NCBI GenBank assembly: GCA_016215205.1
Contig: JACRKU010000013.1
Coordinates: forward strand, 29,016 to 93,015
DNA length: 64,000 nt
Source: Candidatus Yonathbacteria bacterium
Lineage (GTDB): Bacteria > Patescibacteriota > Minisyncoccia > Phycocordibacterales > UBA1550
Reading direction: 5' to 3'
Both the position numbers and the translations under genes were made by a program. Below, one piece after another: positions 18,593-29,122 of the stretch; the first letter of the stretch is position 1, and each line of letters begins with the position of its first letter. The notes beneath the pieces were generated by a model. It was not told the DNA's origin. It saw only the letters and a program-made list of their open reading frames with translations, and ran no database searches.

Positions 18593-20035
18593 ATGAACTT
18601 TCTAAAAACAAAACGAGAAGAAACAAGAGAAGATATTTTTGGTATTAAAGTTGCAGACCCGTACCGCTGGCTTGAAGATGTAAAAAATCCAGAGGTTAAA
18701 GAGTGGATTGATGCACAAAATACTCACACCGATAATACTCTTCGAAATGAAACATTTGAGACTTTTTCTCGTGAGCTTGTGAAAAATTTTAAAGTCACTA
18801 CTTTTTCAAATCCTGTCCCAATTAAAGGGAGATACTTTTACTATGAGCGACAGCCAGATGAAGACCAAGATGCTTTTTATATGAAAATTGGTATAGACGG
18901 CGAACCCATAAAGCTTGTTGACCCGAACGGCATGAATTATGGTAATACAGTTTCTCTGGATTTTTGTTTTCCGTCTCGGACGGGAAAATATCTCGCATAC
19001 GGTCTTTCTCAAAGGGGGGGGGATGAAATGCCAACTATACATATTAAGGACACTGGCACAAACAAAGACCTTGGTTACAAAATCCCTCGTTGTAAAACTG
19101 CTAATGTAAGATGGCTCCCGGATGACTCAGGTTTTTTCTATAAACGAAACCACGCTGTTGGTGATGTTCCGCAAAACGAAGAGCATCTGCATACGAAAGT
19201 ATATTTTCATAAACTTGGCGATGATCCAATGCCGGATGACTATGCAGTCAAACAAGAATGGTATACATCAAAAGATAGCACACGCGTTCCAATGTTCATT
19301 TTTCATCGCAAGGATATCGCCCATGACGTGGCGCATCCTACCATTCTTTATGGGTATGGTGGTTTTGGAAGAGTTGAAAGCCCCAATTTTAAAAGAGGTT
19401 TTGTGCCATGGATAGAGCGTGGAGGTATTTTTGCAGTAGTGAATATCCGTGGTGGCGGTGAGTTTGGCGAGGTCTGGCACAATAGAGCTACTAAAGAAAA
19501 AAAGCAAAACAGTTTTGACGATTTTATTTCTGCAGGAGAATATTTAGTAGAACAAGGATATACTAGCGCGGAGCATCTAGGAATTTTTGGGGGAAGTAAT
19601 GGCGGACTCCTTGTGTCCGCAGTAGCAGTCCAAAGGCCAGATTTATTTAAGGCGGTGTGCTCCCGCGTACCACTCACTGATATGGCGCGTTTTCCGAAGT
19701 TCGGTATGGCTTTACGCTGGGTTCACGAATACGGTAATCCCGAAAATGAAGTGGATTTGAAAAATATATTAAAATGGAGTCCTTATCACAATGTAAAAGA
19801 GGGAACAGAATACCCAGCCTTTTTGTTTACCACTGCGGAGAAAGATGCGCGTGTCGACCCGCTTCATGCGCGCAAAATGGCCGCGATACTTCAGTCGGTG
19901 AACAAGAAAAACGAGATTTTTCTTTTTACGGAAAAAGAAGCGGGACATGGAAAAGGTAAACCTATTAAAAAAATTGTGGAAAGCCAAGCTCTAACGTTGG
20001 CATTCTTTGTTAAGAAATTAGGACTACGCATCTAG
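18593..20035 (+). CDS. S9-family serine peptidase (prolyl oligopeptidase-like) with strongly reduced beta-propeller
   Basis: N-terminal DPYRWLED POP hallmark; catalytic GGSNGGLL nucleophile elbow and downstream Asp/His region; only 480 aa vs ~700 typical, so propeller region ~130 aa; gene is AT-rich (~38-40% GC) relative to flanks. Confidence 0.75.
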   Translation: MNFLKTKREETREDIFGIKVADPYRWLEDVKNPEVKEWIDAQNTHTDNTLRNETFETFSRELVKNFKVTTFSNPVPIKGRYFYYERQPDEDQDAFYMKIGIDGEPIKLVDPNGMNYGNTVSLDFCFPSRTGKYLAYGLSQRGGDEMPTIHIKDTGTNKDLGYKIPRCKTANVRWLPDDSGFFYKRNHAVGDVPQNEEHLHTKVYFHKLGDDPMPDDYAVKQEWYTSKDSTRVPMFIFHRKDIAHDVAHPTILYGYGGFGRVESPNFKRGFVPWIERGGIFAVVNIRGGGEFGEVWHNRATKEKKQNSFDDFISAGEYLVEQGYTSAEHLGIFGGSNGGLLVSAVAVQRPDLFKAVCSRVPLTDMARFPKFGMALRWVHEYGNPENEVDLKNILKWSPYHNVKEGTEYPAFLFTTAEKDARVDPLHARKMAAILQSVNKKNEIFLFTEKEAGHGKGKPIKKIVESQALTLAFFVKKLGLRI

Positions 20036-21267: not shown

Positions 21268-21432
21268 ATGAATGACAATATTGACAAACACATGGAAGTA
21301 GAGGTGGGAGCGTTTTGCCCCGTTGATTTTACTCCACTTATCGGAAAGCGAGACCACTGTGGGAAACCATGCACAAACATTGGTACCTCCTCCGACCAGG
21401 ACAAGAAAAATAAAGAAGACACAATAGATTAA
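21268..21432 (+). CDS. Small hypothetical protein (54 aa, 3 Cys), below ORF-track cutoff
   Basis: AAGGGGAG RBS 8 nt upstream of ATG; translates MNDNIDKHMEVEVGAFCPVDFTPLIGKRDHCGKPCTNIGTSSDQDKKNKEDTID; own terminator at 21458. Confidence 0.35.
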   Translation: MNDNIDKHMEVEVGAFCPVDFTPLIGKRDHCGKPCTNIGTSSDQDKKNKEDTID

Positions 21433-21457
21433 TATCCTGTGTTTTCATTCATTTCAG

Positions 21458-21492
21458 CCTCGCGCATTACGATGCGCGGGGTTTTTTTTCTT
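21458..21492 (+). terminator. Rho-independent terminator
   Basis: cctcgcgcat-tacg-atgcgcgggg hairpin followed by TTTTTTTTC. Confidence 0.7.
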
Positions 21493-21559
21493 TTCTCCTT
21501 ACTATGCGTGGCGCCCTTGCGCACTTTTACAATTTGTGGAAATAGATTAAAATAAGTTT

Positions 21560-21985
21560 ATGGTAGTCAATTTGATTTTTATATCGGCAATTTTATTTTT
21601 CAGCATCTTATTTGTTCTCGGTGTTCACAAAGACATCCGAGACCGCAAGCGAGTTGAGATGCTCATAAAGAATACGAAAGTGTCGAACGAGCGTTTGCGA
21701 ACAATGGAAGGACAGAAAATGGAGTTTGCATCTATTGCAGTGCATCAGTTACGCGCGCCACTCGCGGTTATAAAAGGGTATGCCTCAATGATTCTTGAGG
21801 GGACATTTGGCGCTATTTCCGACCCTGCGCGCGACGCGGTGGAGAAGCTTTATAAATCGAGCGAAAAAGTTGTTGCATCGGTCGAGGACCTGCTTGCTCT
21901 ATCGAGTAGCGATAGAGCGGACTTCGACCAAGGCGCGTGGATGACGGATGAGCCTCAGAATACAGCAAATCGCGAAGGTTCATAA
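21560..21985 (+). CDS. Membrane-anchored histidine-kinase DHp (HisKA) domain protein lacking a catalytic ATP-binding domain
   Basis: N-terminal TM; H-box AVHQLRAPLAVIKGY aligns to SHELRTPLtsIkGY with the phospho-acceptor His present; protein ends after second DHp helix (141 aa), no N/G1/G2 boxes. Confidence 0.65.
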   Translation: MVVNLIFISAILFFSILFVLGVHKDIRDRKRVEMLIKNTKVSNERLRTMEGQKMEFASIAVHQLRAPLAVIKGYASMILEGTFGAISDPARDAVEKLYKSSEKVVASVEDLLALSSSDRADFDQGAWMTDEPQNTANREGS

Positions 21986-22036
21986 GAAGAACCTATCTAA
22001 GTGAAATTTGAGCAAAAAGAATGATATACTTATTTC

Positions 22037-23272
22037 ATGATTGGCAGCATATTTGATATTATCAACAACATCTCGCTTGCAGGATTGGGGGTTGTAATAA
22101 GCAGTTTTTTTGCAGCTCTACTTTGTGGGGTTATTTTTTGGCAAGATGTAACAAAACAGAGGAGCTTGCTCCTCTTTCTTTTTGGAATCGTTAACGCCTT
22201 GGCGGCGCTTGCTTACGCATTTTTGGGAGATTCACTGGGCACTTCTGTCGCCTATGCGGGAATGATAATGCTCTATATCGCTTCTAGTGTTGCGCCGGTG
22301 TTTCTTTTTGTAAAATATAATTTGGGGGATATTAAAATCATAGCGATTGAATTATTTATTTCAATAACAGTGCTTGTGCTCGCCGTGGAACTTTTTTTTG
22401 CGGACTCGCTTCTTGATCTGTTTATCAAAACGGGGATTACGGTTCTTGTTGTTTTTGCAAGTTCATTTTTGGTGCGGAGTGTAAAGCGCGAGATACAGTC
22501 CCAAGATCAAATTGCGTGTTTCTCGCATAACCTAGACATTACGCGCGAGCGATTGCGAATTCTCGACAAGAAAAAATCAGAGTTTATTTCCATTGTAGCG
22601 CGTGATTTACTCGGACCACTGACCGCAATAAATGGCTACGCCTCCACGCTCGCAAGAGGGTCCTTTGGCGAGCTTTCAAGACCGATACAAGAGGCAGTTG
22701 AAAAAATCTTTATCTCAAGCGGACACCTTGTTGCCGTGGTTTCTGATTTTGTGGATATTTTACGCATTGAAAGTGGAGACATGAAATACAATTTTACCGA
22801 TGTAGATATGAAGAAACTCGTACTCAGTGTAGCAAACGAGACGAAGAGGGTTGCAGACAGCGCACATTTGACATTTAACACAACAATTGATGACAGCGCG
22901 CCTCTCAGACAATTTATAACAGTGGGCGATGAAAACAAATTGCGACAAGTTATTTTGAACCTTATTGATAATTCCATAAAATATACGCCTCACGGAGAAG
23001 TTTCACTGCTCCTCCGCGAAAGTCCCGATAAGAAAAAAATTCTTTTTAGTCTGTCGGACACGGGGATAGGGATGAGTCCGTCAACGCTCGGAAAAATCTT
23101 TAGAAAATTTAGCCGTGCCGAACAGGTAAACACGGTATATACTGAAAGTATCAGTCTAGGTCTCTACGTCGCAAAAGAGATCGTGGATAAGCACGCGGGC
23201 AGGATTTGGGCGGAATCAAAGGGGGAGGGAATGGGGTCAACGTTTTTTGTAGAGCTTGCGGCAAAGCCATAA
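22037..23272 (+). CDS. Polytopic sensor histidine kinase-like protein with His-to-Arg substitution at the phospho-acceptor position
   Basis: ~5 TM helices; DHp SIVARDLLGPLTAINGY aligns to canonical H-box with R in place of H; intact HATPase_c (N-box LIDNSIKYT, G1 SDTGIGM, G2 GLGLY); DHp helices paralogous to upstream 141-aa gene (GTFGAIS.P..DAVEKLY vs GSFGELSRPIQEAVEKIF). Confidence 0.75.
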   Translation: MIGSIFDIINNISLAGLGVVISSFFAALLCGVIFWQDVTKQRSLLLFLFGIVNALAALAYAFLGDSLGTSVAYAGMIMLYIASSVAPVFLFVKYNLGDIKIIAIELFISITVLVLAVELFFADSLLDLFIKTGITVLVVFASSFLVRSVKREIQSQDQIACFSHNLDITRERLRILDKKKSEFISIVARDLLGPLTAINGYASTLARGSFGELSRPIQEAVEKIFISSGHLVAVVSDFVDILRIESGDMKYNFTDVDMKKLVLSVANETKRVADSAHLTFNTTIDDSAPLRQFITVGDENKLRQVILNLIDNSIKYTPHGEVSLLLRESPDKKKILFSLSDTGIGMSPSTLGKIFRKFSRAEQVNTVYTESISLGLYVAKEIVDKHAGRIWAESKGEGMGSTFFVELAAKP

Positions 23273-23393
23273 AAACCTTGTCAAATGGTGCTTTTTGGTG
23301 TATTGTGCGTCAGTGCTATCGTATTTTGGGAGATCGTCGTATGGTGGGAATGAAAAATGAAGCAGTTCATTTTTCATCCGGTTTCGTGAGAAA

Positions 23394-23509
23394 ATTGCCG
23401 TTGTTTTTGTTTTAAGCTGGGAGATCGTCTAATGGTAGGACAGCGGCCTTTGAAGCCGTGAATCTAAGTTCGATTCTTAGTCTCCCAGCTTAAAACAAAA
23501 ACCGGCAAT
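23394..23509. repeat. ~28-30 bp inverted repeat flanking and overlapping the tRNA-Gln gene
   Basis: attgccgttgtttttgttttaagctgggag (upstream) vs reverse complement of ctcccagcttaaaacaaaaaccggcaat (downstream): near-perfect pairing extending the acceptor stem by >20 bp. Confidence 0.55.
23418..23488 (+). tRNA. tRNA-Gln (anticodon UUG)
   Basis: Manual fold: acceptor TGGGAGA/TCTCCCA, 3-bp D-stem (Gln-like), anticodon stem GCGGC/GCCGT loop CTTTGAA (U33, UUG, A37), T-arm CTAAG-TTCGATT-CTTAG, discriminator G; D-arm closely resembles E. coli tRNA-Gln. Confidence 0.8.
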
Positions 23510-28072: not shown

Positions 28073-29122
28073 ATGTTCGACAAATTTTACCAACTTTTTT
28101 CCAATGACATCGGCATCGATCTCGGTACCGCGAATACTCTTGTGTATTTGCGCGATCACGGCATCGTTATCAACGAGCCGTCGGTTGTTGCGGTAAATCA
28201 GAAAACGGGGCAGGTTGTCGCGCTAGGGACGCAGGCAAAACAAATGCTCGGTCGCACGCCGGGGCACATTGTTGCGGTGCGTCCTCTTGTTGACGGTGTC
28301 ATTTCAAACTTTGAAGTTACTGAAGAAATGCTCTCATACCTTATCGGAAAGGCGAATAAGATAAGCAAAAAAACGGTGCGGCCGCGCGTGGTTATCGGCG
28401 TGCCTTCCGGTATTACGACCGTTGAAGTGCGTGCCGTTTACGATGCGGCAAAAAATGCTGGCGCGCGAGAAGTGCACATTGTTGAAGAGCCGATGTCCGC
28501 GGCTATCGGCATAAAACTCCCCGTGAAAGAGCCGATTGGCAATATGATTATAGATATCGGCGGCGGCACGACAGACATCGCAGTAATTTCGCTCGGCGGT
28601 ATTGTACGCTCGAAAAATCTGCACATTGCGGGAGACCGTTTAAACAATGACATTATTAATTATGTGCGTGATGAATTTCGCGTGCTTATCGGCGAGCGCA
28701 CCGCGGAAAGCGTGAAAATCGCGATTGGCTCGGCTAAAAAAGGCGCAAGCCCGATGGAAGCGGTCATTCGCGGGCGCGACCTTGTGACAGGGCTTCCTCG
28801 CGAGGTGGTGGTGACAGACACGGATATTCGGGAAGCAATGAGCGCTTCGATTGTGGGTCTTGTTGAGTCGGTAAAAGAAGTCATTGAAACCACGCCGCCT
28901 GAAGTTCTTTCTGATGTGATGAGTCGCGGAATTATTTTGGTCGGCGGCGGCGCGCTCCTTCGCGGACTTGACGAGCTTCTTTCTCAAACGCTTCATGTCC
29001 CTGTTTATGTGGCCAACGACCCATTGACCGCAGTCGCGCGCGGCGCGGGGGTCATCCTTGAAGATATGGAAGGATTCCGCGAAGTGCTTATCGAACACGA
29101 AAATGACACACCGCCGCGATAG
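28073..29122 (+). CDS. mreB: Rod shape-determining protein MreB
   Basis: IGIDLGTANTLVY..., DIGGGTTDIAVISLGG actin-like motifs, 349 aa. Confidence 0.9.
   Translation: MFDKFYQLFSNDIGIDLGTANTLVYLRDHGIVINEPSVVAVNQKTGQVVALGTQAKQMLGRTPGHIVAVRPLVDGVISNFEVTEEMLSYLIGKANKISKKTVRPRVVIGVPSGITTVEVRAVYDAAKNAGAREVHIVEEPMSAAIGIKLPVKEPIGNMIIDIGGGTTDIAVISLGGIVRSKNLHIAGDRLNNDIINYVRDEFRVLIGERTAESVKIAIGSAKKGASPMEAVIRGRDLVTGLPREVVVTDTDIREAMSASIVGLVESVKEVIETTPPEVLSDVMSRGIILVGGGALLRGLDELLSQTLHVPVYVANDPLTAVARGAGVILEDMEGFREVLIEHENDTPPR

Follow-up and report, generated by a model that had tools for sequence, protein, structure and literature searches.

Within a 64,000-nucleotide (nt) stretch of the Candidatus Yonathbacteria bacterium assembly GCA_016215205.1 (contig JACRKU010000013.1, forward-strand positions 29,016 to 93,015; hereafter the 64-kb window, numbered from its first letter), we analysed two adjacent forward-strand genes related to sensor histidine kinases. 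Gene 1 (21560–21985) encodes 141 amino acids (aa) and gene 2 (22037–23272) encodes 411 aa, precisely where and as long as a first-pass annotation of the same DNA had drawn both open reading frames (ORFs). The two share a reading frame, with 51 nt between them and three in-frame stop codons, gene 1's own included; the shared frame is probably coincidental. We asked where the pair comes from and whether it still has the parts that phosphotransfer needs.

Gene 1 has a single hydrophobic segment (residues 6–22) and one recognizable domain, HisKA (PF00512; residues 53–118, nt 21716–21913, E = 6.4e-12), which corresponds to the dimerization and histidine phosphotransfer (DHp) domain. The domain search returned no HATPase or catalytic and ATP-binding (CA) domain and no other domain. 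In a residue-by-residue alignment against HK853 structures, H62 pairs with the phospho-acceptor His, so the description of gene 1 as a transmembrane (TM) anchor plus a DHp domain that keeps its His and lacks an ATP-binding domain stands. The H62 codon is CAT (21743–21745, forward strand), the H-box reads AVHQLRAPLAVIKGY, and its core is kept (H62, L64, R65, P67 and L68). The AlphaFold2 model (mean predicted local distance difference test score, 70) has an unbroken helix at residues 2–79, a short loop, a second helix at 88–122 and a disordered tail, a fold predicted to be a membrane-anchored DHp hairpin.

Gene 2 has five hydrophobic segments, in agreement with the five TM helices first assigned to it, together with HisKA (PF00512; residues 180–247, nt 22574–22777, E = 2.1e-8) and HATPase_c (residues 297–408, nt 22925–23260, E = 1.4e-22). 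Its R189 pairs with His260 of HK853 in such an alignment ('IVARDLLGPLT' against 'NISHELRTPLT'), and that column is His in 115 of 120 gene 2 homologues; the Arg at the acceptor position is thus confirmed. The R189 codon, CGT (22601–22603, forward strand), lies a single nucleotide from the His codons CAT and CAC. The HATPase_c domain had been called intact, which holds for the N and G1 boxes, and for the F box, but not for the G2 box: at the ATP-lid hinge S371–L376 (23147–23164, forward strand) the family consensus G-[TS]-G-L-G-L has become SISLGL, with two glycines lost, whereas all 119 other homologues read G-x-G-L-G-[LI]. Gene 2 therefore lacks two traits of a functional class I (HisKA-type) kinase, the acceptor His and an intact G2 box, and has the DivL-type trait of a kinase fold with the acceptor His replaced. 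In the window, then, gene 1 has the His without a CA domain and gene 2 a CA domain without the His. Neither gene matches PF16927 (HisKA_7TM).

We scanned genome and metagenome collections with a gene 1 alignment and parsed the ORFs at each matching locus. At about 30 Parcubacteria loci, a gene-1-like DHp domain (55–69% identity) lies inside a full-length kinase of 550–595 aa, here called A, whose H-box, KTEFVSIASHQLRTPLTVIKGY, is nearly invariant. Immediately downstream of A at about 17 of these loci (gap of −4 to 365 nt) lies a full-length 545–560-aa kinase of the gene 2 family, here called B, with the H-box SHHLRDPLT. A and B are about 29% identical over their full lengths. Gene 1 corresponds to residues ~249–363 of A, at 59–63% identity. 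Its start codon is a conserved internal Met of A, located at the beginning of A's last TM helix, and its ORF ends about 15 residues past helix alpha-2; the flanks of gene 1 contain no remnant of the coding sequence of A's 7TM sensor or CA domain. Gene 2 aligns to B in two blocks, gene 2 residues 4–91 with B 4–99 and gene 2 ~90–410 with B ~231–553, and is 50–68% identical to the B family. Most gene 2 homologues are about 553 aa long and additionally carry PF16927, which is also matched by A of locus L036; just three homologues have 411 aa. These three proteins have one clean in-frame deletion of about 143 aa with the same boundaries, removing four of nine hydrophobic segments. Because the number of segments deleted is even, the topology of gene 2 is kept. 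In gene 2 of the window, the junction of this ancestral loss from B falls at residues A86–L90 (22292–22306, forward strand).

Wider searches and a tree gave the same picture. In a neighbour-joining tree, gene 1 falls in clade A, and the gene 2 trio groups together within clade B. Word-indexed searching with gene 1 recovered four short proteins of 127–141 aa and no more. When 1.84 billion representatives were searched exhaustively, almost every close relative of gene 1 proved to be a kinase of 530–575 aa, matched at residues ~255–375, and the sole close DHp-only match was gene 1's own cluster. The sequence comparisons thus indicate that an A–B tandem of HisKA_7TM-type sensor kinases is widespread in Yonathbacteria and other Parcubacteria, and they support well the view that the pair in the window consists of reduced descendants of such a tandem, not of recent paralogues. 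The two DHp domains, which had been read as paralogous, are indeed homologous (37% identity over 102 aa, E = 2e-21), but they come from the anciently diverged families A and B and are not recent duplicates. Likewise, the suspicion that gene 1 might be a fragment of a longer kinase gene was right as to the source, kinase A, and wrong as to the means, which was deletion and not a recent frameshift.

Other origins were considered and rejected. The summed lengths of the two proteins (141 + 411 = 552 aa, against ~553 aa for the homologues) might suggest one split gene, but the two fall in different families, gene 1 in A and gene 2 in B. One deletion spanning the end of the DHp domain of A and the N terminus of B does not fit either, since gene 2 still has the N terminus of B (gene 2 residues 4–91) and lost an internal stretch. 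For gene 1, an origin as a recent frameshift product or pseudogene is at odds with the lack of A remnants on its flanks and with the conservation of the short ORF in three lineages. Finally, the gene 1 DHp domain is not a recent copy of that of gene 2, being 30–46% identical to all B members alike, against 59–63% to A.

The sensor part of A shows a pattern of its own. In two pairs of loci (L036:1066–2751 and L040:5257–6924; L015:5236–6930 and L016:5227–6888), the N-terminal ~250 aa of A are only ~20–25% identical. From the middle of A onward, through B and past it, the DNA of L036 and L040 is 99% identical, and in L015 and L016 the remainder of A and the whole of B are ~87–90% identical. The breakpoint of this divergence is the last TM helix of A, precisely where gene 1 of the window starts. 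The pattern suggests modular replacement or hypervariability of the A sensor, or chimeric metagenome assembly. A local cassette or shufflon, suggested by the swapped 5′ part of A and by the 101–273-nt repeats upstream in L040, was rejected because the genes upstream are ordinary (QueC, HIT, DUF397, a hydrolase, an acyltransferase and HAD). A further locus encodes a 302-aa A-type kinase (L019:6004–6912) whose start, as in gene 1, is at the last TM helix. It keeps its CA domain and has Tyr at the acceptor position (IVSYQLRAPL), as in DivL, and is followed by a full-length B with His. This protein may be an intermediate or a parallel reduction.

Orthologous pairs had been suggested as something to look for in related genomes, and the reduced pair was found in three lineages, in the syntenic order NUDIX/LysM, gene 1, gene 2, DUF1905, cupin, RRF and RseP. 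The lineages are the window, a clade comprising L001, L002, L003, L009 and L038 (the L001 clade), and L004 together with L076/L077. The L004 contig breaks off in a 28-nt palindromic terminator, and L077, which comes from the same sample, begins with the identical 28 nt; from this overlap and the shared sample we infer that L004 and L076/L077 are adjacent. The ORF called downstream of gene 1 in L004 itself is not gene 2. LysM identities place the window and L004 as sisters, with L001 as the outgroup. ORF lengths are kept across the lineages, at 137–141 aa for gene 1 and exactly 411 aa for gene 2.

The acceptor His is not kept in this way. In the window, gene 1 has His (CAT) at the acceptor position and gene 2 has Arg (CGT); in L004/L077, both have His (CAC); and in the L001 clade, gene 1 has Arg (CGT) and gene 2 has Leu (CTT). 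There have thus been three separate single-nucleotide losses of the His, to Arg in gene 2 of the window and to Leu in gene 2 and Arg in gene 1 of the L001 clade. The Arg in gene 1 of that clade (TSREMRTSL) is seen in five independent assemblies, so the acceptor His is not conserved among gene 1 orthologues, and the replacement in gene 2 is not fixed, with Arg, Leu and His in three orthologous lineages. Among the fetched loci, by comparison, the His is kept in 28 of 28 distinct full-length A proteins and 19 of 19 distinct full-length B proteins. Overall it was lost in 3 of 6 truncated gene-lineages against 3 of 145 full-length sequences (Fisher p = 7e-4, a value to which phylogenetic non-independence applies). 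The full-length exceptions are the B-family proteins P0053, P0069 and P0098 (540–553 aa), with Arg, Asn and Lys, respectively, and they indicate that sporadic His loss occurs in B even without truncation.

We estimated the ratio of non-synonymous to synonymous substitution (ω) by the Nei–Gojobori method with bootstrapping; synonymous divergence (dS) between lineages was ~0.8–1.3. Between lineages, ω was 0.28–0.34 for gene 1 (bootstrap 0.14–0.56) and 0.23–0.25 for gene 2 (0.17–0.32), compared with a median of ~0.11 (range 0.07–0.27) for housekeeping neighbours. Calibration with most full-length pairs failed because dS was saturated, which left L015–L016 and L036–L040 usable. For L015–L016, the single full-length pair whose dS is comparable, ω was 0.035 for the TM7 and DHp segment of full-length A (without bootstrap) and 0.083 for full-length B (0.06–0.11). 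Within the L001 clade, where both genes lack the His, the comparison of L001 with L009 gave 0.15 for gene 2 (0.04–0.42) and 0.6 for gene 1 (0.11–2.6, compatible with 1). In a relative-rate comparison, hardly any full-length member lay as far from the outgroup family as the truncated proteins did. Gene 2 is under purifying selection even after His loss. We conclude that both genes are constrained and are not free-drifting pseudogenes, yet that the constraint on them is several-fold relaxed.

The relaxation is visible in the motifs themselves. Across 108 full-length B-family proteins, 67 columns of the DHp and CA domains are at least 95% conserved, and a full-length B violates a median of 0 of them (mean 0.9). 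Gene 2 of the window violates 5 of the 67 (H189R, R192L, G371S, G373S and L162F), its orthologue P0002 violates 10 (for example, H189L, R192L, F358L and L376I) and P0003 violates 4 (for example, P194Q and R360V). These lesions vary by lineage and hit the H-box (H189, R192 and P194), the F-box and lid (F358 and R360) and the G2 box (G371, G373 and L376). Gene 1 orthologues violate 4–7 of 25 columns invariant in A, where full-length A averages 0.31 violations. All of these orthologues have lost SRIEQGR, the motif that closes alpha-2 and adjoins the CA domain in intact kinases, and the block IKGYASMIL.GTFG...EKL.KSSEKVV is invariant in all lineages. Since the acceptor His and the ATP-lid motifs decay lineage by lineage, and one clade has no acceptor at all, phosphotransfer appears to be no longer maintained by selection.

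A receiver-domain hidden Markov model found no response regulator in the 64-kb window, as had been noted from the sequence at the outset, nor any within 6 kb of Yonathbacteria A–B tandems. The same model was positive elsewhere, detecting receivers beside more distant relatives with E values of 1e-22 to 1e-37. Querying the 64-kb window with A and B by tblastn revealed no further kinase.

We propose the following course of events. In one Yonathbacteria sub-lineage, A was cut to its last TM helix and DHp hairpin, giving gene 1, and B shed four TM segments by one in-frame deletion, giving gene 2; these reductive steps are the part demonstrated by comparing the sequences. After the reduction, selection on phosphotransfer chemistry would have relaxed. 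The acceptor His was replaced three separate times and the ATP-lid, F-box and G2-box motifs acquired a different lesion in each lineage, while the ORFs stayed intact under purifying selection. Any function that the pair still has would then be independent of His phosphorylation. Gene 1 would serve as a DHp dimerization stub tethered to the membrane, and gene 2 as a pseudokinase in the membrane, its kinase fold preserved and its N, G1 and F boxes probably still binding nucleotide, the two acting as a scaffold or modulator and not as a phosphodonor. We regard this phosphorylation-independent role as moderately probable. It corresponds to the fallback offered by the first-pass annotation, that the Arg variant is a pseudokinase or scaffold, and is the reading that the comparative evidence favours.

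Several points weigh against it. The losses in the window are complementary, as in a split kinase, gene 1 having the H-box core and gene 2 a CA domain with N, G1 and F boxes, and the Ser-for-Gly changes of the G2 box may leave the ATP lid with some, if reduced, function. Both R189 and the G2 lesions rest on one metagenome-assembled genome, without independent confirmation. The ω of gene 1 after His loss has an interval that reaches beyond 1, the dS of the main comparisons is near saturation, and the full-length calibration of ω comes mainly from one genome pair with unsaturated dS (L015–L016). There is also no positive evidence pointing to a phosphorylation-independent function or to a partner.

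DivL of Caulobacter crescentus is a pseudo-histidine kinase in which the acceptor His is replaced and which functions without autophosphorylation (PMC4211667). The structure matches of gene 2 include DivL (PDB 4q20) and RetS (PDB 6dk7), and gene 2, like DivL, combines a DHp domain and a CA fold with a replaced acceptor. The Tyr of DivL is conserved among its orthologues, whereas the gene 2 site is Arg, Leu or His by lineage, which indicates relaxed selection at the site as opposed to selection for a new residue. The window pair also differs from DivL in lacking PAS domains and known DivK-like or CckA-like partners. For gene 1, a parallel is ChrS_CA-fs of Corynebacterium glutamicum, a laboratory-evolved CA-less pseudokinase that still confers a phenotype and in which the His is dispensable (PMC9491836). 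Like gene 1, it has been cut to TM and DHp parts by loss of the CA domain, and a paralogous kinase is present. It differs in that a frameshift during experimental evolution produced it, whereas gene 1 is a short ORF found in nature and kept in several lineages, and additionally lacks the whole sensor region. A DHp-only protein is not new in itself, given that about 3.7% of HisKA proteins in SMART have no HATPase domain (PMC3591291). Compared with the Parcubacteria HisKA_7TM (PF16927) kinases, to which gene 1 (59–63% to A) and gene 2 (50–68% to B) are related, gene 1 lacks the 7TM and CA regions, gene 2 is four TM segments short, and acceptor or ATP-lid motifs are damaged. The distinctive feature of the locus is that a pair conserved in nature descends, through deletions, from two different tandem kinases in a genome of the candidate phyla radiation (CPR) and has lost the His in a lineage-specific way. 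The literature on CPR two-component systems and on HisKA_7TM yielded nothing specific to the gene 1–gene 2 pair.

One competitor is a natural split kinase, proposed for the pair from the start: the DHp domains would form a heterodimer, the CA domain of gene 2 would phosphorylate H62, and phosphorylated gene 1 would pass the phosphoryl group to a response regulator not linked to the pair. The loss of the CA domain in gene 1 and of the His in gene 2 would then be complementary degeneration inside an ancestral A–B heteromer. In its favour, the His and most of the H-box survive in gene 1, as do the N, G1 and F boxes in gene 2. Moreover, A–B adjacency, with very short or overlapping gaps, is kept across a wide clade despite ~29% identity, which suggests functional coupling. 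Precedents exist in FasB/FasC of group A Streptococcus (PMC12675982) and CheA3/CheA4 of Rhodobacter sphaeroides (PMC3591291). FasB and FasC are tandem kinase-like membrane proteins that heterodimerize, one of them a proposed pseudokinase; the CA domain of FasC and the TM domains of the other partner are dispensable, the acceptor FasC H246 is required, and the operon includes the response regulator FasA (PMC12675982). As a tandem kinase-like membrane pair, FasBC is the closest experimental precedent, but the pair in the window has no linked regulator, its His is not conserved among orthologues, and it belongs to another kinase subfamily. In CheA3/CheA4, whose split-kinase activity was shown biochemically, the acceptor His likewise lies on one protein and the kinase domain on the other (PMC3591291). 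That system has a P1/P3/P4 architecture and not a DHp domain, and the catalytic motifs of the window pair are degenerating.

As a conserved function, trans-phosphorylation of gene 1 by gene 2 is unsupported, for several reasons. In the L001 clade neither protein has an acceptor (gene 1 Arg, gene 2 Leu), yet gene 2 there is under purifying selection. Gene 2 of the window has lost two of the three G2-box glycines, both invariant in 119 other homologues, as well as R192 of the H-box, and the third lineage, with both His present, has lost P194 and R360, so that each of the three lineages has its own lesions in the H-box, F-box and lid, or G2 box. Genes 1 and 2 evolve 3–10 times faster at non-synonymous sites than their full-length counterparts, and no receiver domain is encoded nearby in the 64 kb. 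The DHp domains of A and B are, furthermore, merely 37–40% identical, and kinase paralogues are usually insulated against heterodimerization. Given the damaged G2 box, a sister clade devoid of acceptor His and the lack of a nearby regulator, we judge a split kinase unlikely. In the genome of the window alone, where the losses happen to be complementary, some residual trans-phosphorylation may persist.

We think it equally improbable that the genes are functionless relics, dead remnants of A and B in slow decay that disruption or deletion has just not reached so far. Such a fate would account for the three separate His losses and the lineage-specific lesions in catalytic motifs, for ω several times that of neighbours and full-length counterparts, and for the ω of gene 1 between L001 and L009. 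The surroundings would suit it as well, in that the neighbouring S9 peptidase gene of the same genome has another in-frame internal deletion and an IS200-type transposase has inserted beside the pair in the L001 clade. What speaks against relics is that ω lies well under 1, the bootstrap intervals reaching no higher than 0.56 for gene 1 and 0.32 for gene 2, and that it is 0.15 in gene 2 after His loss. ORF lengths have also survived dS of ~0.9 in strongly deletion-prone genomes, a long block of gene 1 (IKGYASMIL.GTFG, EKL.KSSEKVV) is invariant, and a promoter-like element stands in front of each gene. The ω values and the preserved ORFs thus disfavour this reading.

A variant of the split kinase takes the A–B tandem as an obligate heteromer pared to a minimal form, with gene 1 as anchor and acceptor DHp domain and gene 2 as the catalytic domain, the His-less L001 pair being a later, separate loss; we consider it distinctly improbable. 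It is very unlikely, finally, that one or both reduced proteins bind and tune the DHp domain of a remaining kinase elsewhere, a sub-case of the scaffold or modulator role for which RetS–GacS of the Pseudomonas aeruginosa multikinase network, where RetS acts through DHp–DHp contacts and not through its own phosphotransfer (PMC8498467), and DivL–CckA (PMC4211667) are precedents and the DHp helices, the best-conserved parts of gene 1, are an argument, because no other kinase lies in the 64-kb window, direct evidence for any partner is missing, and RetS itself differs as a full-length hybrid kinase with a periplasmic sensor and a known partner, none being known for the window pair.

A hairpin at 21456–21483 with a T-run (feature 21456–21493, forward strand; 12-bp stem with 7 GC pairs and a TTTTTTCTTT tail) resembles an intrinsic terminator and is a candidate for closing the upstream transcription unit, just 5′ of the gene 1 promoter candidate. 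The latter is sigma-70-like (21526–21553, forward strand; TTTACA-16-TAAAAT), matching at 10 of 12 positions, a consensus match only. The gene 2 promoter candidate (22001–22030, forward strand) has a TG-extended −10 element (TATACT), and its TGATATACT element is also found upstream of the orthologue in L076/L077. Both candidates end 6 nt before the ATG, with no obvious Shine–Dalgarno sequence, which suggests leaderless, or nearly leaderless, transcripts.

Upstream, between LysM and gene 1 and ahead of the terminator hairpin, lies a 54-aa ORF (21268–21432, forward strand). It is conserved in L001 (55 aa), with GAFCP.D...LIG.RDH.GKPCTN.G.S.DQ common to both, and is probably a real small Cys-containing protein. 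The window lacks the spacer of ~400–550 bp that separates this ORF from gene 1 in L001 and L004. Less than 3 kb from the kinase pair, the S9 prolyl-oligopeptidase-like gene (18593–20035, 480 aa) lacks residues ~215–398 of its 680-aa L004 orthologue, a second in-frame internal deletion at the locus. The L001 locus has no match to the S9 gene, and DnaJ lies directly upstream of NUDIX there. In the L001 clade, an IS200/IS605-type Y1 transposase gene and a 276-aa ORF (L001:12263–12937) lie between gene 2 and DUF1905, an insertion not found in the window. Downstream of gene 2, tRNA-Gln(UUG) (23418–23489) is flanked by a perfect 22-nt inverted repeat (23403–23424 and 23481–23502), which adds 15 bp, formed by leader and trailer, to the acceptor stem. 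The 5′ end of the tRNA recurs as a 23-nt copy 91 nt upstream (23327–23349), and L077 has a similar arrangement.

The pair is an evolutionary curiosity and introduces no new signalling principle or mechanism, and the NCBI name of gene 2, 'HAMP domain-containing histidine kinase', is a misleading annotation. If the scaffold or modulator reading is true, the locus would show, as an experiment of nature in an ultra-small CPR genome, which domains a histidine-kinase pair can dispense with. The surviving parts, once phosphotransfer was unselected, would be the DHp hairpin and the CA fold, and the parts shed would be sensor TM helices, one CA domain, the acceptor His and ATP-lid glycines. A naturally conserved DHp-only protein and a His-less kinase would then join the short list of bacterial pseudo-histidine kinases. 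The analysis also brings to attention an uncharacterized, widely conserved Parcubacteria tandem of two multi-TM kinases without a linked regulator.

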